Shown piece after piece: positions 2,667 through 43,200 of a DNA stretch of 64,000 nt. Each line of letters begins with the position of its first letter. Positions within the stretch are counted from its first letter, which is position 1. The DNA is from Phoronis australis (lineage: Eukaryota > Animalia > Phoronida), in NCBI GenBank assembly GCA_002633005.1, contig NMRA01000354.1, positions 62,001 through 126,000 on the forward strand, in the 5' to 3' direction. Made by a program: the position numbers and the translations under genes. A model generated the notes under the pieces. The model worked only from the letters and a program-made list of their open reading frames with translations. It did not search any database and had not been told where the DNA came from.

Positions 2667-3166
2667 CTATTTTGTTTTAGTGTGCTTTGCCCGTTTTCGC
2701 TGTGATGGTCCCTCGTGAGCATCACTACAATCGTCCTCTCCTTTTAACCTTGTTTTCGACGATTTCTTAATAGTAGTCTTTTCGGCTGCAGTTCCAGATG
2801 ACGGGCTCCGACTCTCTGCTTTGTACGTCTGCACCTCCTGCACAAGCGCGTTGAACTTCCTGTCCTGCTCGGCAAACTGCCGTCCGTGCTGCTCCAGTTT
2901 GGAATTGCACTCGGCGATCTGTCTCTGTTGATCCTCCATCTTGGCTTTGCATGACTTGAGCTCTTTTCGCAGGTGATTAATCATGATGTTACTGGAACGC
3001 ACACGATTCCGTAGGTTGGTGATCTTGTTAGAATAATGCGACAGCGAACTTGCCGCCGGCGAATAGGGTACGGGGTGCTGATGTAGCACCACCTTGGATG
3101 ACGTCGACGGCTGCGGTGTGTCGCATGCCACTGGCAGGCTGAACTGAATCGTCTTGGTAGGTGGAG
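2667..3166 (-). CDS. FBXO28: FBXO28 terminal coding exon
   Basis: ttag acceptor, phase matches exon 3. Contains coiled coil (LRKELKSCKAKMEDQQRQIAE) and NLS-like RKRAKH, then TAG. Confidence 0.88.
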
Positions 3167-6100
3167 CTAAGGACAAAGATGGAGAAAGTATAGTAAAATC
3201 TAACCAATTTAGCACAAACATGGCCGAATGGGGAAATTTTACTTTCTCAATTTCTCTATGAAGATACGGAGCACCAATTAGTTGTTTTCCATGTGCAACT
3301 CCTGCACCACAGCTAACACCTGATAATGATTTAAGAAGTTGTGGGCAACCAAAGCAATGTTTAGAAGCCTTTAAAAACTGAAAAAGGGCGACATGAACAA
3401 TTACTTTTGTCCGAAATTTCACAAGATTTCTTAGGATGTTACTGGTAAAAACTAGTACAAGTCGGATCTAAGTGGCTTGACAGACTTTATCCGAGTAACA
3501 GCCAAACGACTGCGCCCCTGACTTTCTCAGTGTTATGCGAAGATCCAATTCGAATGTGTCTACCAAGTTCCAATTATTGCAACTGGTATGCTGCATAATT
3601 TAGCACCATACACAAAGGTACACAAGATATCTAAAAAATTCAACGTAAAATTTGAGACTAAACGCAGCAGGTCTCCATGTTTCAGCCACTGACTGTTAGA
3701 CTAAATGCAGCAGGTCTCCATGTTTCAGTCACTGACTGTTAGACAAAAGCTAGTGCAGTATTTGTAAGCATTTGGAAAGAAGGAATCATTCTTTGCTCTC
3801 CTTTGAATCACAACAACTACCATTTCCACTTCATCGATTAAGATGTCAAGTGATGACGTATCTGCCACCATTATGACTCGATTGGAACCCACAAATAGGA
3901 ATAGAAATGCAGTCATACAACATTATTACTAACTTTGGGATTTTCTCCAATTCAGGCAATGATGGAGGCAATTTAGAACTTGAAATTTTAACAAACTATG
4001 TATTTGGATTCATTGGCATGCTCCAACAAGGATTGTGTCCGTTGTATGTTTAACGGGAGCTAAGAAGGATTAATATTGACAACCTCCATAGTCAACTAAT
4101 GATTTTTAAAAGTGCTTAATAGTAATTTACAGCTCTATGTAAATCTGGCCCAAATACTATAATCGTTTTTAATTTCGGCATTTTAATATTATTTGACCTG
4201 GACCCAAACGTCAAAATAACGTCATACTACACAAGCGAATCCAACAGAATAACCCGACAGAAATCTTTCACAGCAAAAAGAATTGCAACTGAAATGAACC
4301 AGCCAACAGACTGCTCTACGCAAATTTGACCTGCGGCACAAATCACAAGCAAAAAGGGCTCTGGATACGAGTTTAGCGAATAAGGTGGCTAAAATTCAAA
4401 TGCATGCCATACATCCAAACGAATCGTGATCTTTAATCTGGGCAAAAAAATCTCCAAAGCTGCGTTCATGCATTCTCTAATCATGCATCCTATTTGTCTG
4501 GGAATGGGAATTCAATTTATCAGCAATTATTATTAGAGAATCAAGGACACGCGGCTTTGGAGAACTTTGTACTCTGATCGAAGATACGTTTTGATGTGCA
4601 AAACACAAAAAAATCGGTTTAATTTCAAATTTAATCGTCATCTTAATTGCCAAACTCGTGTCCACCATCTTCAACTAACTTACTGGGTAAGCTATTAGTG
4701 ATGTCCTGCATTTCCGACAGGTTTGAGAAGTAGTTAATCTCGGGCAGGTTTCCCTCAATGTGCTCTTTAAAGAACTCCAACGCCATGGTAGACAGGTCAA
4801 ACAGCTCATCGGTTACTTTGTACGCTCTGGCTGGCGACTCCGTGGTCTTAATATAGCGCAGGATTCTGTAGATCTCGTCTAAAACCTATACAAAGACGAC
4901 AGACACCGTACACCAGCTGGAAACTAATTATCACACACACAATCTCCATTACGTTTAATTAAACTTGTTGCTTTTGGCCTATTTGACAGAATTTTTAATA
5001 CTTCAAACCATGAATTTAGACAGTCCAAGTAAATGTTCATACCAACACTGCAGTATTGGTGAAATCCTACCTCTCCAGGAAAGAAGCAGCAATGCTTCCG
5101 CTCTATGTGTTTGCCAAACGTCATCTGAAGCAAGGTCAACCTCATGTGTAGCGTCTCCACTATGTCGCACTCTCGAGCCAGTGGGTGCTTCCGGCGAAGC
5201 GACTCCCGTCTCGGCATCTTGTTTTTGATTAGCTGAAATCGCTGCAGCATACGGTTTTGTAGCTTGAAGAATGTCTTGTTGAGAATGTGTTGGCAGATTT
5301 GGTCAAACCTCTTGCACACCTAGAACAATGCAATTGGTGTACCATGAGTAGAATGGGTTGTAGGCCTACACATGGGCGCACCCAGGGGGCTCTAGGAGCT
5401 TGAACAAGCCCCCCCCAGTGGGCAAAAAGGTCCACTTCAGAGAAACAAAAACTTCGAAAAAAAAGTTGAAAACGAGACAAAAGTCAGGAACTGCCAAAAT
5501 TTGGCAACTACACAATTCATAGCTTTAAACGTACCCCGTGAATCTTAGTAAAAGGTCCATATTCTCAAAAATTTAAGCCCCACATATTTAGGCTGGGTGC
5601 GCGCATGTTACAACGAAGGCATTATAAGCACAGCATATACAGATTGGTTGACTGTATACAAAAATGCCAGTTTACAACAAACAAACAACGGAACTGTTGT
5701 CAGACATGTTACCAAGGTGGAGACAATTCAGCATTCAAGCACATACACATATTGCTATGGCCTCTGTTGCATGGCCAGCCTGTGCTGACTGATGTGGAAG
5801 GACTCTTCAAGCAGTGCTGCATGCCATCATACTTACATGGACTCATGACTGTTTGGTCAGAGTAGTTACCATAGTCATACTGGTTAATTTGGCTTTTAAA
5901 AAAAATCTTAAGGAGTGGAGTTGGACATTGACCTGCACAAACCAATACGAGACAAATTTTGTTGAACACGGCATCAACTGATACCTGATGCGAGACCAGC
6001 CTGCCACCGATAAGAGCAATTCTTACTGTATTGCATACATTCTTGTTATGTGATTTGAATATGAAGCTTGTAATATTAACTTTTTGTGTTTTCCTCAGAC

Positions 6101-6809
6101 ATGAGCCTGGGACATCTTTTACATCAATTGATGTCTGACGCGAAATCAGCCTGCCGCCCATTAGAGCGATTATATAAGGACATTAACTACAAATGGAACA
6201 TGGTGTCCAACAAAACCTGTCTCAAGGAAAATTTGCTGCCAAGATACTTCAAACTGATCAGAGTTAACGTCAATACTGATGCATGCTGAAATTCTCTGTA
6301 CATGGATGTTCACAAGAAGATTGACTAAAGACACGAACGCACACAATGGGAGGGTGGGGTTATCGAGCATAAGCGTTTTAAAAGTGAAAGTTCAAGGAAG
6401 AGCAGAAGTCGAACCTGTGCATTAACCCAAATGGCATAATGACATTGCACGATGAGTTGGTCCACTGAATCATTTAATCAACCTAAGTGGCTAACAGCAA
6501 AAATGTGCCACTGCGGTGAAAAAAATCCACAGCAAGCTGGACAGAATAACAAGACTTCACGATATAAATCGGTTTTAAAAATTTCAAATGAGGCATTGCT
6601 AATACTTCCACAACATTAATGCACAATATCAGGGCAAAAAAAATTGCATTACTTACAAGCCTACTTTTAGACACCTCACTAAATGTAAGACAGCGTAGCA
6701 TATATTCCAACACCTCCTCAGGCAAACTGAGAAGGTCAGTGGGTGGAACTACCACTGTTTCGATATCAGTTTCGTCGCATGTTTCCTTACTTGTACTTGG
6801 CTCCTCCAT
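2667..6809 (-). CDS. FBXO28: F-box only protein 28, complete spliced CDS join(6809-6657, 5319-5071, 4885-4684, 3166-2667), 1104 nt, 367 aa
   Basis: F-box LLSLPEEVLEYMLRCLTFSEVSKSRLVCKRF, then the FBXO28-specific block KMPRRESLRRKHPLARECDIVETLHMRLTLLQMTFGKHIERKHCCFFPGEVLDEIYRILRYI, a coiled coil and a basic C-terminus. All introns are GT-AG with compatible phases (0,0,1). Confidence 0.95.
3656..3744 (+). repeat. 43-bp tandem duplication
   Basis: GACTAAAyGCAGCAGGTCTCCATGTTTCAGyCACTGACTGTTA x2. Confidence 0.9.
4684..4885 (-). CDS. FBXO28: FBXO28 coding exon 3
   Basis: tatag|VLDEIYRILRYIKTTESPARAYKVTDELFDLSTMALEFFKEHIE...SLP|gtaagt, 202 nt. Not in the ORF track. Confidence 0.93.
5071..5319 (-). 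CDS. FBXO28: FBXO28 coding exon 2
   Basis: ctag|VCKRFDQICQ...HCCFFPGE|gtagga, 249 nt. Confidence 0.95.
5371..5607. mobile_element. MITE with CATG(G/C)GCGCACCCAG TIRs
   Basis: 15-bp TIR with 1 mismatch; no clear TSD. Confidence 0.6.
6657..6809 (-). CDS. FBXO28: FBXO28 coding exon 1 (start and F-box)
   Basis: MEEPSTSKE...LLSLPEEVLEYMLRCLTFSEVSKSRL followed by donor GTAAGT. An acceptor AG lies 7 nt upstream of the ATG with an in-frame TGA in between. Confidence 0.9.
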
Positions 6810-8281
6810 GACTCATCTGTAATGACAAGCATAGTCCATCTCTTAGTACATGTGTACGGATGGAGGAGACTTCTACTGTTTCACTAAATAATTCCAGACA
6901 AACACAACATTCTACTTTCGCGTTTTGTAGCAACTGACATAAGGTGTGAGACGCCCGATGATGGATTAGATAACAGAGTTCTCCACAATAAAAAATTCAA
7001 ACTTGACTTGAATTACAAAATTGTTGTGCACATTCAAAACTTCATGTTTCTACTGCGGGGAGTTTGTGGGTCTTGAAATAAATGTATTGAACTGGTAACA
7101 AAAGTCCAAAATGTCATGATTTGGTTAAGAAATGACTCACTCAAATGTCCCAATCCTTCAAACATTTTTTCAGATATTATCATCGTTGACAAACAAACAA
7201 GTACATCCATCCATTCATCCATGCACACCTCATGAGAGACCATTCTCATATCTCAATCTCCTGTAATAACAACTCCTATATGGAGTTAACGTGAATAATG
7301 AAATTGACCAATTTCCCAGAGAAGCTGTCAAGTACAAATTTTTATATGCAACTAATTTTTTAGCATAAAAGTTCTCATAGGTATATGTAACAAACTTGTG
7401 AATATTAGGTATATTTTGTGACATCCTTCAAACTTTTTGCATAGGTTTTCAAACTGTGCAAGTAAGCCAAACTTGTCACACAACATCCAAACTCAATTGC
7501 AGTGAAGAGTCAAAACAGGTTGTGAACAACACTATCTATGTGCTGTAATTCAAACTACGTCTGCATTAACTGTGATTGTTAGCACGCACGTAAAATCAAA
7601 GAATCTATCAAAATCAGAATAAAGAACCCTCTTTTGAATTGAGACTGTGGTGTTCAGTTACTCCCCCTCCGCAGTGACATCCTTATCAAGCATACGCCAT
7701 GAAATACTCTAGATACTCTAGTCATTGACTACGGCCTGGCGGACCAGGCCGAAACATCTGCTACCATCTGTCAATAGTAATCTCTCAGGAGGTCCTTTCA
7801 CTATATTTACCAAAAAGACATGATCAAGTGACCTAATTAATAGCAGATATTTTTAGAAAGTCAAAAAAAATATATATAGAAGCTCTTTTCTACTCTCAGA
7901 AAATGCATACTTTTACCAAAATAAAATCACAAAAGTCCTATTAGTGATAGTCCCTCATGTAACAGTGGAAACTTTTAACAATTCCTCACACCGTTTTGGA
8001 AAACACAGTATAAAGCGTAGTATCTCAAAGTTTGATATGAATCTGATCAGCCATTTTGGGAGATACAATGATTGCCAAAAATGGTCATTTTTCGAGGGTA
8101 ATACATTTATAACCTTAAACTTGTTCCTTAAGCGATTTGATTTCAAGGCACGAGAAAAACTGAAGTTGTTATTGGTTGAAACTAGATGCAAATTGTCTTG
8201 TCACGGTATGTAATTTTAAAGCAGGATTTTTTTTGTACTGAGCATAATGTCCAGGAACAGCAAACTGTCAGTTTTTTGTAA

Positions 8282-9223: not shown

Positions 9224-11309
9224 GCCGAAGTTGACATTGCGTGAGTTAAATGGCCGGGCTTTCCAGTCCAACCTGGATACTTAATCTTAAAAATGTGACG
9301 ATAATTAACCACAGACACTTGGAAAAATACATTAGAGAGCAAGTCAATAAACTAAAGAGTTGTCTGACGAAAGGGTATAAGATTTTTTTTGGAAAACTAG
9401 GTTCGAAACATAAAAAGTAAATATGACCAAATTGCGGTGATCGTAATGTTACAGATTAGGTATTATGGTGAATGCAGGGTTACGTTTCTTCTTGTAAATT
9501 TTTGATAATGCTTTCTACACCAACCAGGTCATTTGCTTGTTTTGTTGACGAGTTGAAGATATATTCAACAGTGGTGGCTCATCACATTTTGCTGTGATGT
9601 GCAATTAGTCACATCTGGTTTAATTCGTTGATCAAGGATAGCCTAGGTCCTGTTGATTTGTTATTGATTTGTAATTGATGTTGCTAAATATATTTTCTAT
9701 TAAAATAAATAACCAGGCTTCCAATTGAAAATAAAAATTATTTGACCATCAATTCTGTTTTCTTGGTTTTAATAGTTCTTACGTCTATTTCATGTGTTAG
9801 GTTTCAAATATCAATCCGGACCAAGTTGAATTTTAAACTTAAAACACCTAATTCGTTCGTCCAAAGCATAACCTCGTTTTAGAGCTCAATTTCAGTTAAC
9901 TGGACAGAGCAAGCTTTTCTTCAGGGGCCTCGTTCATCCGAGGCCAAGGGAAAGGTGCCTGTGCCTTCTGAGAGGGGAATTTTTTCGCCGAGTGAGGGGA
10001 AAAATCTACATCCCTATCACCATCAATAGCACCCCCCCGCCCTGCTGTAAGTTCTCATAGGCTCTGTCCCAAGTAGCATTTTGTGCTCTTTCAAATTGTC
10101 ACCTGTGTGGTTATTAGGTGATTTGAACTTCGAAGAGAAATTTTCAATCAATGGGGAAATTTTTAGGCCTTGAGGGGAGAATTTCGCGTGATTTTTCAAA
10201 ATTTTTGAGAGGGGAATAAGGCCGATATTCGGCTCCAAAATCGAGGGATTGAGGGCCCTGTCACGTNGCCGAAGTTGACATTGCGTGAGTTAAATGGCCG
10301 GGCTTTCCAGTCCAACCTGGATACTTAATCTTAAAAATGTGTCGATAATTAACAACAGAGACTTGGAAAAATACATTAGAGAACAAGTCAATGCACTAAA
10401 GAGCTGTCTGACTAAAGGGTATAAGTTTTTTTTGGAAAATTAGGTTCGAAACATAAAAAGTAAATATGACCAAATTGCGGCGATCATACTGTTACGGATT
10501 AGGTATTAATGTGAATGCAGGGTTACGTTTCTTCTTGTAAATTGTTGATAATGCTTTCTACACGAACCAGGTCATTTGCTTGTTTTGTTGACGAGTTGAA
10601 GATATATTCAACAGTGGTGGCTCATCACATTTTGCTGTGATGTGCAATTAGTCACATCTGGTTTAATTCGTTGATCAAGCATAGCCTAGGTCCTGTTGAT
10701 TTGTTATTGATTTGTAATTGATGTTGCTAAATATATTTTCTATTAAAATAAATAACCAGGCTTGCAATTGAAAATAAAAATTATTTGACCATCAATTCTG
10801 TTTTCTTGGTTTTAATAGTTCTTACGTCTATTTCATGTGTTAGGTTTCAAATATCAATCTGGACCAAGTTGAATTTTAAACTTAAAACACCTAATTCGTT
10901 CGTCCAAAGCATAACCTCGTTTTAGAGCTCAATTTCAGTTAACTGGACAGAGCAAGCTTTTCTTCAGGGGCCTCGTTCATCCGAGGCCAAGGGAAAGGTG
11001 CCTGTGCCTTCTGAGAGGGGAATTTTTTCGCCGAGTGAGGGGAAAAATCTACATCCCTATCACCATCAATAGCACCCCCCCGCCCTGCTGTAAGTTCTCA
11101 TAGGCTCTGTCCCAAGTAGCATTTTGTGCTCTTTCAAATTGTCACCTGTGTGGTTATTAGGTGATTTGAACTTCGAAGAGAAATTTTCAATCAATGGGGA
11201 AATTTTTAGGCCTTGAGGGGAGAATTTCGCGTGATTTTTCAAAATTTTTGAGAGGGGAATAAGGCCGATATTCGGCTCCAAAATCGAGGGATTGAGGGCC
11301 CTGTCACGT
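9224..11309 (+). repeat. ~1.04-kb tandem duplication around n10267 (probable uncollapsed haplotypes)
   Basis: 9224-10266 and 10268-11309 differ only by scattered substitutions and an indel. The ORF track shows duplicate 71-aa ORFs. Confidence 0.9.
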
Positions 11310-13807: not shown

Positions 13808-13907
13808 ATGGTTTTCGAATCTTTGGTAGCCGACTTGCTCAACAAGTATCTAGGCGACTTTGTGGAGAACTTGGACAAATCGCAACTGAAAATTGGAATT
13901 TGGGGAG
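13808..13907 (+). CDS. VPS13C: VPS13 exon 1
   Basis: ATG...IGIWG G|gtgag, 100 nt. Confidence 0.96.
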
Positions 13908-16900
13908 GTGAGATTAGGCCCCTACATCCGCACTAGTACTTCACTTCCCTACTTGTTAAATGTTGAGTTGAATATGCATCCTAGCTATTCCTATTGATCT
14001 ATGCCCTGTGGGAGCTTAAGCCTTTATCGTTTAGAACAACCTTAATTCTAGTATACACGACAAGCAAAGAAGGGAGGGTAGTGTGTACACCATAACACTG
14101 ATGCGCCAGAGCCCAGAAGTCTGGTTAGGTTTACAGTCTCGCCACAGCGTGATGCCTGTGATAATATGCTGCTGTGATTGAGGTTCGCAATCTTGCCACT
14201 GTTGCCTCCAAGGCTTGAATCGGGGTTTCCCCACGTGAGAGCCGAACATGCAGACAATTCAGTCATAAGGCAATTGCTGCTTGGCAAGTGATTAAGAGAG
14301 GCTTTATACAACTCTACGTCACACGTGGAAGTTGCCAGTGTCACAACATTCCTAGATCCCTTCTATGAATCGAGCACCCCACCTGGCCCCTCAAGTCGGC
14401 CATGCCTCTAGTCTGGTTTTTGTTTCCACTGCAATTGCTGGAGCCTTACTGTTGTGAAAGTGCTTCCGGTGAATCACATATGAGCTTTCTGTTAGCCACT
14501 CGCTAACGGGCAATTGCCTATTAGCTGAATGGTTAGCACGCTCGCCGGTTAAATCGGGGTCGCTGGTTCGATTCCCGAGGTCGGGCAATCTCGGCTATTA
14601 CGACAATTGGCGTAGTCGGCAAACGGATGATATACCGATGGAGCACTTCATAGACCCTGGGTCCTGAGACAGCACGCTTGTTGGTAGGGTACAGGCATGA
14701 TGTAAGGTGCATGTACAGGCATAATGTAAGGTACACCTACAGTCAAGTGACCTAATTATCGGACGTTTTGGCACATTTTGCATTATATTTAATTGAAAAT
14801 CACTACGGACTGTTGTAAATTCTTTGCTGAAATATAGACTTACCTTTATAGAATTGTTGTGTTACTATATCTTGTCACCGAAAGCCACATTTATGTTCCG
14901 ACTGAACTTTAAAAAACAGAACAAGCAAACCTTCGGAGAACCTAAATATCGGACACCATGTTTCCCCATACGCCACACCGCGGAAAACTGACTAACCACG
15001 TAATGGCCGCGGGCACCTTGTAGCCAAATTTCAGCTCGAGTGTTTTGACATATATGCTGCTAGAACACATGTCCATTCGCAACAAAATTATCCATAAAAT
15101 GAAATCTGATGACGGCGCCAAGTGCAGACGACTAAAGCACGTGCAAACTCACTGCAGTTTTTAGTATCACTTTGGCTTCTTGATATCACACCCGCACGTG
15201 CGCGGTGGGGGTTTGACTTGAGTTTAAAAACAAATGAAAAAATGGAACAGTTACATATTGTCAGTTCAATGAGAAAGTTTCATTGTGGAAAAAGATTTTA
15301 TTTTCAACTTTTATAACCGATTTATGCGATCGTCCATTTTAGGCCGACTTGGGGGTCTTGGGGGAACCCTCTCTCGGTGAAATCAAAACGAGGCAACGCT
15401 GTAAAAAACGAGACAGTGCCGGACATTGAATGCATTACAACGGAAAAACAATTGGTGTCATTTAATTCTCAGATTATGCTTCAAGTAAGATTTTTTGAAA
15501 TGTCCGATATTTAGGTTCCGTCCGATAATTAGGTACAGTGTGTAGTTGGCTGATGGCGTGCTTGTTGATAGGAAAGGGGGGAATGTTGTGAAAGTGCTTC
15601 CGGTGAATCACATATGAGCCTCTGTTAGCCACTCGCTAACGGGCAATTGCCTATTAGCTGAATGGTTAGCACGCTCGCCGGTTAAATCGGGGTCGCTGGT
15701 TCGATTCCCGAGGTCGGGCAATCTCGGCTATTACGACATTACTTTGCACTTCTCCCAAAGGAATGCCGACATCCCATCTAATCGTGGGCTCTAACATTGT
15801 TGGACACTGACACTTGAACTCGTTGGGGTTTCGCGCATGAGAGTCAACCGACCAAATCGCAACTGCTGCATGGCAAGCGATTTAAAGAGGCTTTATATGA
15901 CTCCATGTTGCACCCGTAATAATAATAATAATTTTTGGTGCGCGTCGCCAAAGCTGCCCGCTGTACATGGGCAGTGCATTCGATCGATCACATCTCTTAG
16001 GTTATTATTATTAGATGGTCCAGCATTGGTAGTCCTCAGGGGTAGCTTGCCAACAAATTGTTGTCATCAGAGAATGGGCAACTGGCAATATCTTTTGAAT
16101 GAAAAAAAAATTTACTAAAAGCCAGGAGTTGAATAATATACCAATACTCTATAGTGAAAGTGGCTGAGCTAAAACAAAGGTCAAGGAAGTTACGCACATG
16201 AAGCTACACGGCAACATGTCTCATGTCAGCACAACAAACAGCCAGGCAACACTTAGCTGGCCACCCTTAAGGTTGTGCAGGACCGTTATTTTAGAAAAAT
16301 GCTCAAATTTGGAATGTCGTGTATCAGGAGTGACTTAACTGATTCTTATGAAACCTTCAGATATTTTGCTTTATGCACTGTTTTCTAGAATGCTGTCAGG
16401 ATGTTCCACTTTTGTTATGATGTTTGTAAAAAAATTACCGGTAAGTTGCATAAAATGAAAACGAAACATTACTCTAATCTAGAGAAGTGTAACCTCGTTT
16501 TTGAGATTTCAACTTGGACATTTATATCATGTGGAATTAGGTCATGTAACTGACCCTGTTGTTTTGCACTAAAATGTATAGTTTTTTGCTAAATTTTCTT
16601 AAAATACTTAGTCCCGTGATCTTATTATTGGATATCTCAAACCTTACTTTCAAAAATTGGCCGTGTTACAATATTTGACATATGTCTAGCAAAGTAGAGT
16701 TCTTATCTTCATTCTCAGGTATCTTCAAATACGAAATGTACATATCGTGTAGCGAGAAAAAAGAATAGTAGAACTGCACAACCACGTGGAAATTTGTTTA
16801 TTATTTATTCGAGGTCAAAGGTTACAAGGCTGTCACTAAAATCAAATCTCCCCCAGCCACAGAACAGTTCCCTATGTACTCTCAGGCCTTTCATTCACCT

Positions 16901-31900: not shown

Positions 31901-34900
31901 CCAAACTTTGTGGTGGAAAAACATTTATTTCTCATGCAAGATGTCCACATTATCCTATTTATATCACTTGCAATATCGCACTGCGGCATTGTTCGTTCCC
32001 GCTGTTGGCGCGCAATGTCTCAGTCGGCTGACAATCGTGACTTGGAAATGCCGTCAAGTATATAACGGCCTCTTTCAATATGCATCTCGTTTTTTATGGC
32101 CAAAGATTGCTGCGGGAATCAGTGTGAGTCACCTGTCAATCACATGTTGGTGTCAAGGTAACATGCACTGCAAAGTGTGTGAACTTGCGCACATGCACCA
32201 AAATGACTACAGAGTCACACATCAAAAGAGAATAGCCCAAAGTAACAAAAACGGGCGTGACTATGTACTTTTAAGCTGTTGTTACGAAAGACCCAGTTCT
32301 TTACGATATTCCTCCGTTGCCAATGTTCCCTAAAACTGCAATGTCAAGTCTATTCCGATATTTCCCGGCTCGANATCAAAAGAGAATAGCCCAAAGTAAC
32401 AAAATGGGCGTGACTATGTACTTTTAAGCTGTTGTTACGAAAGACCCAGTTCTTTATGATATTCTTCCGTTGCCAATGTTCCCCAAAACTGCAATGTCAA
32501 GTCTATTCCGATATTTCCCGGCTCGATGCTCTCTGAGCCCATGCACGTAGGTAGCTGCATGCATCTCCTACCCACTATCGCCAATTTTCAGTCAGTCTAC
32601 GTCGTAGATGACTCGAATGGTAAGAGTTTTTGTTCAGGCTGAAACTGGCCAATGTATAAACAAAATTATTCTGGATGGCGAAAAAGGGGATGTGGAAACG
32701 ATAATTCACAAAGTCACGCTTATACGTGGGGACTGACGCAAGAAATAGTAAAGAACAGCCAACGACGTTAGTATCTGCTGACGCCAGTTTGACTGAGATG
32801 CAATAAGCGAAAAACAAAATTTGACTAGCAGTTTTTTATTACCTCAAAATCATACACAAACGTACATTATTGCCAACCTTTGAATTCAGAAATCGATAGG
32901 CAGCAACGAAATCGGTAACCCATTGAGGCACTTGTACTGTCCCTTCGGTCACCACACATCTTCTATAACCTGGCAGTTACATTCATCAAAATATTGAGAA
33001 TTTGACATCTTTCCGTGAGTTGTGAGATTTCCTCAAAGTACGAGAGCTTCCCACCTTAATAGAATTCGGAGGGTTGGCAAAACCATTGTCACATTCTCGG
33101 GCCTTATTTTTTCGAATATATGATTTTTCTAGTGCACTGCAGACGGAAACTCAGCGCGGCAGACAAAGTCGCTGAAAACGGAGGTTTTGACGCCGGCGGC
33201 GTGCTTAAACTTTGCAAACATGGGAAGAAAATAAAGTGACAAAAACGTTCAAGTATTATATTTTGAAGTGAGTCCATGACNAACCCGGCAGTTACATTCA
33301 TCAAAATATTGAGAATTTGACATCTTTCCGTGAGTTGTGAGATTTCCTCAAAGTACGAGAGCTTCCCACCTTAATAGAATTTGGAGGGTTGGCAAAACCA
33401 TTGTCACATTTCTCTGGCCTTATTTTTTCGAATATATGATATTTCTAGTGCACTGCAGACGGAAAATCAGCGTGGCAGACAAAGTCGCTGAAAACGAAGG
33501 TTTTGGCGGCGTTCTTAAACTTTGCAAACATGGGAAGAAAATAAAGTGACAAAAACGTTCAAGTATTATATTTTGAAGTGAGTCCATGACCCTAGACAAT
33601 AACTCGTTACCTGTATTGTAATTCAGATTGCTAAACCACCGTCTCAGAGTCCCGGCGTCGTTGTGCTCATTGTGATCATCGATCTTTTTCTAAAAGTCGG
33701 GGAATTGCTCGTTTCCTTAGCACTGGGCGCTAAATGTTCATTCTTTAAAAGTTGGGGATGGACGCTTAAACGAGAGGTGGGCGCTTAACTGGAAATCTTC
33801 AAAAATCGCAGGGAAGCGCTTAACTGAGCAGTGGGCGGTTAAATCGAAAATCCACGTAAAGTAGGGGGTGGGCGGTTAACTGAGCATGGGCGTTAACCCG
33901 AACGTTTACGGTACATTCATCAACTTAACATAATACATATGCATAAATACAATGTGTGCCGGTGTGATATCTGTCCAAGAAAACAAGAAGAGGCAACAAA
34001 CAACAAACAACAAAATTAGTTGTAAAATGGTGACGCAGAATCTCTCTAAGTTTGCAAGTATCTGTCTAATGACATACTTTGTAAGCGTATAAATCTATCA
34101 ATTTTACAAAATGTAACAGAATTTTTTGTAGTTGGCCAAACTGGAATATTATTTTTAAAATGACATAGAACGTAAAAACAGTCTAAACAGAAGTTAAAAC
34201 TCTTCACCAGGTATTTTCATGGTTTGTTCGTAAAGATTTTGAATTTTCTGTTGATATCAAAACATTTTGGACTCGGCAAATGTCTACTTAGAGACTGCTC
34301 ACAATTATCGCCAATTTCATTATCATATCCACCTCCCCTCTGGAGTCAGCTGCTCGCATGACATTATACTTAAAGAGATGTGTTAAGAAAGTATTCATTT
34401 TATACACTTGAACAAACCGAATGCTCCCTCAACTGCTTGAATTGTGAAAATTTTCATTTCAAATGACTGACCCAGCACACCGCTGTACGATCTACAAGAT
34501 GCAGATTTTCCTTACAGACCAAACATTCAAGTGAAAAAACTAACAGAAAAAAGTTGAAAAAGGGAACTAAAAATTACTTTGAGTTCTTAGAATTAAGACA
34601 TAAAGTTATTAAAAAATTGGGAAAATCGATTCAAAGATTAACTAGAAAGCCTGAAGTACATACACATTTAATTCCAACGAAAAATTAATTCCAACCAAAT
34701 TGGAAAAGTCAAGACGAAAACCTGTGACTCATCCCCCAACTTTCAAACAATAATTACGGGTGTCAATTGTTCATAATTCACGCTGGTGTAGAACAAATGT
34801 GACCCATTTGACACCAAGAATAACTACCAGGACCCTAAAAATAGGCTCAGTTCCCCCTGGCAGAATTTTTAAACATGGCTTAGACTAATCAGATCATTTA

Positions 34901-40260: not shown

Positions 40261-43200
40261 TGAGCGCGTGTGTGTGTTTGTGTTCCCATACTGCTGAAAA
40301 TAATCAGAGATCTAATTGATCACAATTTCCTGAGCTTTGCGGAAAAAATGTGGCAGAAGCGACTGACCTGTCAGTTATGATTCAACCATCCCATCAGTTG
40401 ATGAAAGTATCGTGCTGATGTCAGTGTCTATGTCTGCGGTTGGAGCGTGTCTCTTTAATCAAAAAAAANNNNNNNNNNNNNNNNNNNNNNNNNNNNNNNN
40501 NNNNNNNNNNNNNNNNNNNNNNNNNNNNNNNNNNNNNNNNNNNNNNNNNNNNNNNNNNNNNNNNNNNNNNNNNNNNNNNNNNNNNNNNNNNNNNNNNNNN
40601 NNNNNNNNNNNNNNNNNNNNNNNNNNNNNNNNNNNNNNNNNNNNNNNNNNNNNNNNNNNNNNNNNNNNNNNNNNNNNNNNNNNNNNNNNNNNNNNNNNNN
40701 NNNNNNNNNNNNNNNNNNNNNNNNNNNNNNNNNNNNNNNNNNNNNNNNNNNNNNNNNNNNNNNNNNNNNNNNNNNNNNNNNNNNNNNNNNNNNNNNNNNN
40801 NNNNNNNNNNNNNNNNNNNNNNNNNNNNNNNNNNNNNNNNNNNNNNNNNNNNNNNNNNNNNNNNNNNNNNNNNNNNNNNNNNNNNNNNNNNNNNNNNNNN
40901 NNNNNNNNNNNNNNNNNNNNNNNNNNNNNNNNNNNNNNNNNNNNNNNNNNNNNNNNNNNNNNNNNNNNNNNNNNNNNNNNNNNNNNNNNNNNNNNNNNNN
41001 NNNNNNNNNNNNNNNNNNNNNNNNNNNNNNNNNNNNNNNNNNNNNNNNNNNNNNNNNNNNNNNNNNNNNNNNNNNNNNNNNNNNNNNNNNNNNNNNNNNN
41101 NNNNNNNNNNNNNNNNNNNNNNNNNNNNNNNNNNNNNNNNNNNNNNNNNNNNNNNNNNNNNNNNNNNNNNNNNNNNNNNNNNNNNNNNNNNNNNNNNNNN
41201 NNNNNNNNNNNNNNNNNNNNNNNNNNNNNNNNNNNNNNNNNNNNNNNNNNNNNNNNNNNNNNNNNNNNNNNNNNNNNNNNNNNNNGCTTTAGTGACACGG
41301 GAGTTGCGTCGATCCTAAATTAGCGTTTCTAAAATTTTCCTTGTCCGAAAGTCGCGGGACAAAAATCCGACGTTTATGACATTGTCCGAAATTCGAGGAT
41401 CATTGAAAAACAGTTTTTGGACCTTGTACGAATTTCGTGGACCATGAAAAACTCATTTCGGAAATATTTATTCTTGGTCGAAAATGGCGGGCCGTCCGAA
41501 AATCACGCGACTTTACCGTATCTCTTAATTTGTAGACTACGCCCAATTTGTTTTGGTTTGTCTGCTTTTGTTATACATATTATGCAAGGTTTTGTTTTGC
41601 TAATATCCCTTACTAAAACTGAAATCTGTGCTGATGATGTGGGAAACGTATTTGTTTTGTGGCTGTTAGTAAAGTGTTTACAGTAACTCTTCTGCAATCT
41701 TGCACAGAGTCAATGGTTAAAATTACCATTTTTACGCTGGCTGCTACAACTAATCAAAATTTTACCAATGAAGTCTTGTTTGATGACATCTCTCCTTACC
41801 AACACAAACGAAACTACAAAATTTTCTTAATTGTTTATGTGTGTTGAGGGAATTTTGAAAAAGATCACTCGTCAACCAACCGTGTTCTGTGGTGAATTGC
41901 TGACGACTATCCTTATTTAATATTTGATGTCCTTGCTTAGCTCCCTGAAAACAATACTCTTAACAAAAGTCGACATTGCTCAGAAAACCATCTGCACCAT
42001 CTATGACCAGTTTCTCTCTTGTATTACTTTTGACAGGTAAAGTGTCATTAATAATTGTTATTAATTTTTGGAAATTTAAGTGAGGGCATTTGGAATCCCT
42101 TACAGTTCTGTCATTACCACAAGTTTTACACTTGCCTCATTTGTTGCGCCTTTGCTATTGAGACTTATGTATTTGGAATGTTTTGAAATTGAATTTTCTG
42201 CAGAAAAAAAGAAGAAAGCGAAAGATGACTCCTTTGGTGAGAAATTAGCGGTACAGATTGTGAAGAATGTTCAAGTGCAAGTGACTAACATCCACGTGCG
42301 CTACGAGGACAAATTCACGAACCCCCAACAGCCATTTTCAGTTGGATGTACTCTGCAGGGACTCCACTTCCAGGTAAACGATTATCTTTTTTGCTTTGAA
42401 TTTGCCTTCCGTCAAAAATATTACGTAGACCACTTGCTGTTAAAAGAATTATCTCAACTCGTTTTTTTCTCCAATTAGAGATGATTTCTGGGCTTGGGAA
42501 AACTGACAATAGTGCCGTCGATACACGGCGATAGAACTCTCCTTTATCCTAGTGATAAGAAAGTGCGTGACCTCGTTTTGGAAATCAGGCACATTTTCGT
42601 GTCTTATCATTGATGTCGGGAAAGTAGAGGATTTCGGAGTGACCATCCACGAGTATGTGTCCAGTTTATCAAACTTTCTCACGTCGGAGTTGCAGCCCAC
42701 AGCGCAGCAGTAATACTTTGTTGGCATTGGAAGGACGGATAGAGTAGTGCAACAGAGATAAACTTGTAAAGAATCAGATTACAAATAACATGTGAAACTC
42801 CAGTGTCACGAAAACGAGGCAGCAAATGTGCCTGACGAATGTTTACGGCATTGTGGGTAAATACAGCGAGATTCGAGTGTGGCTGTGAAATCGGGGATGG
42901 CCCTATTCATAGGATTTCATTCTACATGGTGCTGCTGTCATTTTCTAACACACTATAGGATAGTTGTCGGCTTGTAAACATCCGGTGACATCACAGAAAA
43001 CTTGTGGATGTGTGACCGTGATTCACAATTTGTGTTGAAGCGATGAGATTTGAATTCAACCGGATCGGATGGCGTATGCCTGGAGAATCTTTCACGCGAA
43101 AGACTTGTTGCATTTGTTCGATGCATTTTGAGTCTCACTTTGAATCTTTTATTGTTCTGTTAATTTCCTGTGATGTTTGCTTTGTTGTGCTCGCATCAAA

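Follow-up and report, generated by a model that had tools for sequence, protein, structure and literature searches.

We analyzed a 64-kb stretch of DNA (64,000 nt of Phoronis australis contig NMRA01000354.1, hereafter the window) and found that positions 14450 to 15738 are occupied by a real, gene-less long terminal repeat (LTR) retrotransposon, which adds a family to the Helenus type already described. Helenus elements belong to the TRIMs (terminal-repeat retrotransposons in miniature), and their LTRs contain transfer RNA (tRNA)-like promoter sequence. Very probably, the element is a recent insertion from a multi-copy non-coding family that RNA polymerase III (Pol III) likely transcribes and whose copying and integration are likely the work of enzymes from a host Gypsy element, with tRNA-Ser(AGA) serving as the primer. 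Directly ahead of the first promoter box, each LTR also possesses a hairpin followed by a palindrome, and this arrangement was recognized by eye in many published Helenus LTRs. All coordinates are window positions, and the element was analyzed on the plus strand.

Anatomy, copies and classification of the element

The element presents the following features, where TSD stands for target-site duplication, PBS for primer-binding site, PPT for polypurine tract and MITE for miniature inverted-repeat transposable element:

14446..14449, plus strand: left TSD, TTAC
14450..14605, plus strand: 5' LTR, 156 bp
14491..14507, plus strand: hairpin with a 6-bp stem, seen in the sequence and in predicted folds
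14508..14519, plus strand: self-complementary 12-mer holding the perfect 10-mer palindrome GGCAATTGCC at 14509-14518, located at the predicted Pol III start site
14522..14532, plus strand: A box (consensus as given in PMC10137851)
14565..14575, plus strand: B box (consensus as given in PMC10137851)
14606..14739, plus strand: 5' part of the internal region, with a 24-nt tandem pair at 14689-14736
14608..14621, plus strand: PBS of 14 nt, the complement of the CCA-bearing 3' end of tRNA-Ser(AGA)
14740..15542, no strand assigned: nested MITE, 803 bp, non-coding, with TA at 14738-14739 and 15543-15544
15545..15583, plus strand: 3' part of the internal region, terminating in the PPT (15570-15583)
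15584..15738, plus strand: 3' LTR, 155 bp, with the palindrome at 15641-15652, the A box at 15655-15665 and the B box at 15698-15708
15739..15742, plus strand: right TSD, TTAC

Both LTRs start with TGTTGT and end with ACGACA, and they differ by one substitution and one indel located at a single site. The PBS starts with TGG at 14608, 2 nt past the end of the 5' LTR. A published antisense probe against tRNA-Ser(AGA) begins with the same 14 nt (PMC13478228), as do templates for human tRNA-Ser at their 5' end (PMC3299991), which is the basis for assigning the PBS to this primer. The PPT consists of 14 purines and adjoins the 3' LTR. The longest frame initiated by an ATG in the element has 61 codons, and the element measures 484 bp (156+173+155) once the nested MITE is removed. 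An earlier note, made from the letters of the sequence, had described this same anatomy: 156- and 155-bp direct repeats with a single differing site, a 4-bp TSD, a PBS complementary to tRNA-Ser, a PPT, no coding capacity and a length of about 480 bp without the MITE. All of these features were recovered in our analysis.

The internal region is interrupted by the MITE, which presents imperfect terminal inverted repeats as well as nested ones, with a TA on each side. This TA duplication suggests an insert of the Tc1/mariner type. Sequencing data show that the MITE belongs to a separate high-copy family: contigs and reads enter it at 14738 and leave it at 15537 with varied flanks. The joint that skips the MITE (14737 to 15543) was found in contigs of runs X1 and X3 and in RNA reads of runs X8 (two reads) and X9 (three reads). 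In addition, four RNA reads of run X10 pass from 14739 to a piece identical to 15545-15583 at 38 of 39 nt and then into the LTR, which indicates that close MITE-free relatives exist. The MITE was inserted later than the retrotransposon.

Eight of ten sequencing runs were aligned to the window (X4 and X5 were left out). In X1, the summed contig depth over the LTR reached 3.9e4-1.2e5 vs 30-38 on unique flanks; this is not a copy number, but it points to a large family. The surroundings of the LTR vary: in X2, 20 contigs exit the LTR end with a flank agreement of 0.39 and 13 contigs enter it with an agreement of 0.52. LTR-PBS junctions were found in the organisms labeled B and C, and the PPT-LTR junction was found in C as well. 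Moreover, reads of X10 contain a solo LTR flanked by GCCC on both sides, and the same locus is present in one contig of organism B with the flanks GCCC and GTCC. This solo LTR constitutes a second independent 4-bp TSD and an insertion common to organism B and the source of X10. The number of 24-nt tandem units in the internal region also differs between family copies. The runs show a dispersed multi-copy family that includes a solo LTR; a search of metagenomes with a family-specific 24-nt pattern returned 0 loci. The earlier note had staked its reading on the existence of further copies with LTR-PBS and PPT-LTR junctions and independent TSDs, and such copies, with varied flanks, do exist. It had also called the family young. 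This is true of the present copy, whose LTRs are nearly identical; the family as a whole shows a range of divergence: among 721 contigs of X2, 114 were at least 99% identical to the window, 148 fell at 95-99%, 217 at 90-95% and 242 below 90%. Judging from runs X10 and X6 over 14449-14605, this solo LTR, which numerous RNA reads contain and which organism B carries at the corresponding locus, is a candidate exonized or fixed insertion.

The junctions also bear on whether the two repeats are LTRs at all. Repeats with boxes like those of SINE2, a class of short interspersed nuclear elements (SINEs), might have arisen by independent SINE insertions or by local duplication. Two independent SINE insertions are ruled out by the LTR-PBS and PPT-LTR junctions in other copies and organisms. 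The TG..CA termini, the PBS after the first repeat, the PPT before the second, the single TSD around the unit and the lack of tails further argue against this origin, which we consider, local duplication included, as good as refuted by the junction data. The element resembles SINE2 in its internal A/B promoter with 32-nt spacing. In contrast to SINE2, it is not a single head-body-tail unit devoid of PBS and PPT: it has no tail like those of long interspersed nuclear elements, and its LTRs, PBS, PPT and short fixed TSD indicate insertion of the integrase type.

The features of the element agree with the published description of animal Helenus (Kojima 2024, PMC10886601). Helenus, or TRIMp3, groups those TRIMs in whose LTRs a tRNA-like sequence shows conservation at boxes A and B; these boxes are retained across distant families, the TSD of animal families is 4 bp, and their PBS types are common to Gypsy families. 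Like these elements, ours is short and non-coding with two LTRs (484 bp without the MITE, for a listed range of 311-1263), its LTR of 156 nt and internal region of 173 nt lie inside the published ranges, each LTR presents the motifs TRGCY..YGG and GGTTC, and a PBS, a PPT and a 4-bp TSD are present. As in most Helenus, there is no functional tRNA and no cloverleaf. The earlier note's attribution to this group is therefore upheld. The PBS type of the element, Ser(AGA), is in contrast absent from the primer types of Fig. S2, where the Ser types are TGA and GCT. Short motifs of the PBS and LTR gave 0 matches in the supplement of that paper, in which line breaks may hide a motif. The host probably lies outside the taxa with published Helenus. 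Two papers that cite this work (PMC12859917, PMC13570524) name Helenus in passing. Taken as a record, the element enlarges Helenus by a family, a primer type and, probably, a host lineage, which is useful but unsurprising.

Other known systems differ more. Cassandra of plants is likewise a TRIM with a Pol III promoter in its LTR (PMC7215508) but, unlike our element, it is derived from 5S ribosomal RNA (rRNA), carries a terminator in its LTR and has reported Pol III use (PMC7215508, PMC10886601). No 5S rRNA match was detected in our LTR with Rfam at E≤1, and a B box is found instead of the 5S-derived sequence that characterizes Cassandra and Ajax. Finally, biv-TRIM (PMC6934838) has internal palindromes and is a different element.

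Promoter boxes and proposed life cycle

The A and B boxes match their consensus exactly and are separated by a 32-nt spacer. When the LTR was dinucleotide-shuffled 20,000 times, such a pair arose in 0 cases, and within the 64-kb window the pair was found in the two LTRs only. A tRNA fold was not recovered: ARAGORN with default settings detected 0 tRNA genes in the element, a scan of Rfam at E≤1 gave no tRNA match, and ARAGORN with a lowered threshold returned only a poor fold extending into the PBS. Three of the five T-stem pairs can form in the LTR segment and neither a full D stem nor a full acceptor stem is present. The likeness of the segment to a tRNA is limited to the boxes and their spacing, and tRNA finders do not recognize the cloverleaf of a functional tRNA gene. 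The tRNA likeness claimed in the earlier note consequently holds for the promoter and not for the fold. The sole Rfam match, EBv-sisRNA-1 (E 0.38), was dismissed as being at the level of chance.

We infer transcription by Pol III and a Gypsy helper, and the following cycle can be proposed. Since the Pol III start site lies 11 bp ahead of box A (PMC10137851), transcription would begin at the palindrome, about 11-14 nt ahead of the A box, and the RNA would carry the palindrome twice, once at the 5' end and once in the 3' LTR. Runs of four thymines (T4) are absent from the sense strand in both non-MITE parts (14450-14739 and 15545-15738), and because of this Pol III would read through. The RNA would be packaged in trans, tRNA-Ser would anneal at the PBS, the minus strand would jump between the repeated ends, the PPT would prime the plus strand, and an integrase would leave the 4-bp TSD. 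The MITE adds nine runs of four or more thymines (T4+) to the sense strand; owing to the TTTT that it brings in at 14766, the present copy has probably ceased to be a usable Pol III template.

Several observations weigh against this account. That some 480 nt contain no T4 is, taken alone, nothing out of the ordinary, and an LTR without a T-run terminator leaves the 3' end of the RNA unexplained. RNA reads cover the family on both strands and many derive from one solo-LTR locus; in X10, many LTR reads (98 and 53) bear the flanks of this single locus. The RNA reads aligned revealed no discrete start of transcription, one of the two sets of runs giving a single weak end (5 molecules at 14498). 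Given the lack of a discrete start, the reads stemming from one solo-LTR locus and a library type ill suited to the question, the RNA data do not show Pol III activity. We also count on this side that the empty allele of the insertion was not seen among the 15 of 66 joints listed, nor among the loose ends listed, a result which taken alone has no weight either way.

These points might be explained by an ordinary TRIM that is transcribed by Pol II or by read-through from a host gene and whose A and B boxes are the passive relic of an old SINE2 insertion. The lack of a cloverleaf by all three approaches (ARAGORN, Rfam and the stem check), the lack of a sharp start in the RNA reads and the sense orientation of this copy within an intron of a transcribed gene all fit such an origin, and Kojima 2024 (PMC10886601) describes the use of Pol III by Helenus as unvalidated. 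Yet both boxes match the consensus exactly at canonical spacing although the tRNA stems have decayed. In the sequencing runs, no variant of the A box (14522-14532) was found among the 40 of 51 family variant rows listed, and B-box variants are minor in run X2. Together with the retention of the boxes across distant Helenus families (PMC10886601), this leads us to consider a passive relic improbable and to favor active transcription by Pol III.

The hairpin and palindrome ahead of the A box

The earlier note had described a GTTAGC-CACTC-GCTAAC hairpin ahead of the A box. This hairpin is present and turns out to be one half of a larger module, the other half being the palindrome. The start of the A box recurs in the 5' arm of the hairpin, and the 3' arm has two possible partners, the 5' arm and the A-box start. 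The fold predicted for 14488-14600 hides the A box inside a long stem (z -3.36; a stability reached by 0 of 200 shuffles). A perfect 10-mer palindrome arose within 3 nt of this site in 137 of 20,000 shuffles and anywhere in the LTR in 2,709 of 20,000, so that the palindrome alone is modest evidence. For a 14-nt piece containing it, the predicted energy is -21.0 kcal/mol as a self-dimer vs -4.9 kcal/mol as a hairpin.

The published LTRs of Data S1 were scored by eye for a self-complementary word of 8-13 nt, with G-T pairs allowed, directly ahead of the A box. The count covers the non-wasp animal Helenus LTRs (n=76), the fungal LTRs being unscored. The palindrome was found in 54 of the 76 LTRs: 33 of 51 in bivalves, 18 of 18 in vertebrates and 3 of 3 in nemerteans, against 0 of 3 in Lingula and 0 of 1 in ctenophores. 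In the wasp LTRs that were read by eye, without a count, no such module was seen. The palindromes were mostly preceded by the same kind of hairpin. Their centers vary among families (TTAA, ATAT, GTAC, GATC, CATG and TGCA, for AATT here) and are mostly self-complementary. Across about 20 families viewed by eye, departures from symmetry were G-T on the sense strand and not A-C, an observation biased by a definition that allowed G-T. The layout ahead of the A box (arm, loop, arm, one base, a word of 10-12 nt, A box) is shared, by eye, with the LTR-11_DR group of fish, LTR1/2_LCh of the coelacanth, Helenus-1_CGi, -1_CVi, -1_MoPh and -1_PiNo of bivalves, and Helenus-1_LiLo of a nemertean. Our family differs from this subset in the letters of its palindrome, in having TATT rather than a T-run at the junction with the A box, and in its PBS. 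The module is not described in the available text of the Helenus paper, which mentions no palindrome, hairpin or inverted repeat there (its figures were unseen), nor in the other literature consulted.

Ajax presents a similar arrangement. In both Ajax LTRs (Ajax-1_NGe and Ajax-1_LiLo), a hairpin, a palindrome and a consensus tRNA-type A box were seen by eye upstream of the 5S part. The Ajax arms, ATGGC/GCCAT, match the start of the Ajax A box, as TTAGC/GCTAA do in our family. Ajax departs from our element in that 5S promoter motifs replace the B box, the PBS is of the Leu type and the TSDs measure 5 bp. This comparison suggests that Ajax derives from a Helenus LTR by a promoter swap.

The module was also searched with a sequence pattern in which the hairpin arms and outer spacer bases were fixed and the spacer center was unconstrained. 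The scan returned 30 loci, of which 25 (17 distinct after the removal of 8 duplicates) were not LTR-like. The spacer was fully self-complementary in 5 of the 5 LTR-like loci with tRNA boxes vs 1 of the 17 other distinct loci. The corresponding Fisher test (p 2e-4) is overstated, since four of the five loci look like the oyster families from which the pattern was drawn, and three belong to a single family. BLASTN of our LTR against the loci fetched from the scan, the oyster-like ones included, gave no match. One of the loci, on the minus strand of a metagenome contig (L003:480-700), is LTR-like with the module, an A box and a B box and does not match our family. Another (L002:601-650, also L016 and L021) presents a module-like hairpin and palindrome with an A-box-like continuation and no B box, and may be a decayed copy or a product of chance.

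The module suggests one lineage and a possible role in RNA pairing at the predicted start site. We tentatively propose that most non-wasp animal Helenus, our family and Ajax may form one ancient lineage of Pol III LTR elements, a reading that we hold possible but short of probable. This lineage would be defined by an undescribed RNA module, in which a hairpin arm mirrors the start of the A box and a palindrome at the 5' end pairs the genome ends or dimerizes the genome for packaging and strand transfer by a Gypsy helper; Ajax would have swapped the B box for a 5S promoter. Regarding function, which we propose with the same reserve, the 12-mer at the RNA 5' end and in the 3' LTR would most likely pair the ends of one RNA or two RNAs (cyclization or dimer) and thereby help the RNA to be packaged or the strand to jump. 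The upstream hairpin, which enters the transcript from the 3' LTR only, would switch the exposure of the 12-mer and of the A-box start. Palindromes have been proposed to mediate Ty1 RNA dimers, and end-to-end cyclization is known in Ty1 (PMC4974528); with the predicted self-dimer energy, this precedent favors end pairing or dimerization. If correct, a single lineage would contradict the published separate origins of fish and mollusc Helenus and of Ajax and would regroup Helenus with Ajax, and the module would be a cis-signal for borrowing a helper without LTR homology. How TRIMs stay helper-dependent without likeness of LTR sequence is stated by Kojima to be not known, and multiple origins were proposed (PMC10886601). 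A palindrome of variable letters and conserved structure, found in fish, the coelacanth, bivalves, nemerteans, this host and Ajax, is a candidate cis-element and phylogenetic marker.

The proposal faces difficulties of its own. The palindrome is lacking in 18 of the 51 bivalve LTRs, in all three Lingula LTRs and in the ctenophore LTR, all of them from listed families, and it is thus not essential to all Helenus. The count was made by eye on related families, and the resemblance of four of the five scan loci to the oyster families that suggested the pattern likewise lessens the weight of the scan. Two other roles for the module need to be considered. It might be a context-dependent Pol III terminator, with only the hairpin of the 3' LTR transcribed and the RNA released at a short T-run ahead of the A box, or it might block tRNA-like folding and hide the acceptor strand from RNase P/Z. 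In vitro with yeast Pol III, hairpins 0 or 7 nt ahead of weak T4 tracts promote release (bioRxiv 10.1101/2021.08.27.457903); T3-T4 is found, by eye, at the junction of palindrome and A box in many published families; the predicted fold does bury the A box; and Cassandra is said to start and stop inside its LTRs (PMC10886601). The same assays showed no help from a hairpin 18 nt away, and T3 was not among the tracts assayed. Nor does a role of the hairpin require a self-complementary palindrome center, yet the center mostly is so. Because our family has TATT and no T-run at the junction, where no variant is listed, termination is ranked second, and we regard it, like a block to tRNA-like folding, as doubtful.

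The module might instead act at the level of DNA, as a site for a dimeric protein or as an easily melted start region, or be merely inherited and functionless. Its overlap with the predicted start site and the TFIIIB region (PMC10137851) and the likeness in letters of the arms across families are in line with this. On the other hand, the palindrome is made of other letters from one family to the next, a variation that would be incompatible with a sequence-specific protein, the departures from symmetry seen by eye were G-T on the sense strand rather than A-C (with the bias noted above), and in Ajax the hairpin arms have changed together with the start of the A box. We consider a DNA-level or absent function rather unlikely, and pairing between RNA ends or molecules remains the role that we favor.

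As a separate observation, many wasp and bivalve LTRs in Data S1 present, by eye, a T4+ run directly downstream of the B box, at which Pol III would halt in the 5' LTR ahead of the PBS. Our family has no T-run there, unlike those LTRs.

Genomic setting and an older relative

The element lies in the first coding intron of a gene similar to VPS13A/C, about 540 bp from where the intron begins and on the same strand as the gene. The surrounding features are:

13808..13907 (end approximate), plus strand: first coding exon of the VPS13A/C-like gene, with a frame beginning MVFE at 13808, located via short motifs
14200..14381, minus strand: decayed LTR of a related older family (starting at 14348) with a PPT-side internal piece at 14381-14349
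15795..15917, minus strand: another LTR of the older family, likewise decayed and likely the one at the 5' end of the older element

The left decayed LTR (14348 to about 14200) aligns to positions 1-94 of the young LTR with a score of 60 (maximum of 32 in 500 shuffles), and its PPT-side piece scores 35 (maximum of 24 in 200 shuffles). The right decayed LTR (15917-15795) aligns to the left one with a score of 79 (maximum of 41 in 500 shuffles); aligned directly to the young LTR, it scores 25 vs a shuffle maximum of 35 and does not exceed the shuffles. No PBS was recognizable for this older element. Contig depth over the old LTRs in X1 was 212-559 vs 30-38 on unique flanks. By these alignments, the left decayed LTR is likely the 3' LTR of an older element, and the young copy likely sits inside this opposite-strand relative, splitting it. 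The simplest reading is that of three nested layers, with the MITE in a young TRIM and the young TRIM in an old one.

The VPS13A/C-like gene (13808-51709, plus strand), of which a downstream exon (42206-42373) matches VPS13C/VPS13A with an E of 9e-14, lies head to head with a divergent FBXO28-like gene (2667-6812, minus strand). The conserved F-box exon of the latter shares 73-82% identity with proteins of arthropods and annelids. In a tree of 30 rows (the window and 29 proteins picked from the 115 usable of 121), containing no mollusc, nemertean or brachiopod sequences, the window joins the annelid Owenia weakly (82/90). Searches with a VPS13 exon gave no match and those with the C-terminal F-box exon a single weak one, while the Atlas yielded clusters of low score only. 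The host being a bilaterian invertebrate, a lineage new to Helenus is plausible. Finally, the window contains adjacent direct duplications of about 1043, 153 and 315 bp (9224-11309, 32221-32526 and 32967-33590) with 95-98% identity, which are either tandem duplications or assembly artefacts; several N gaps are also found in the window.

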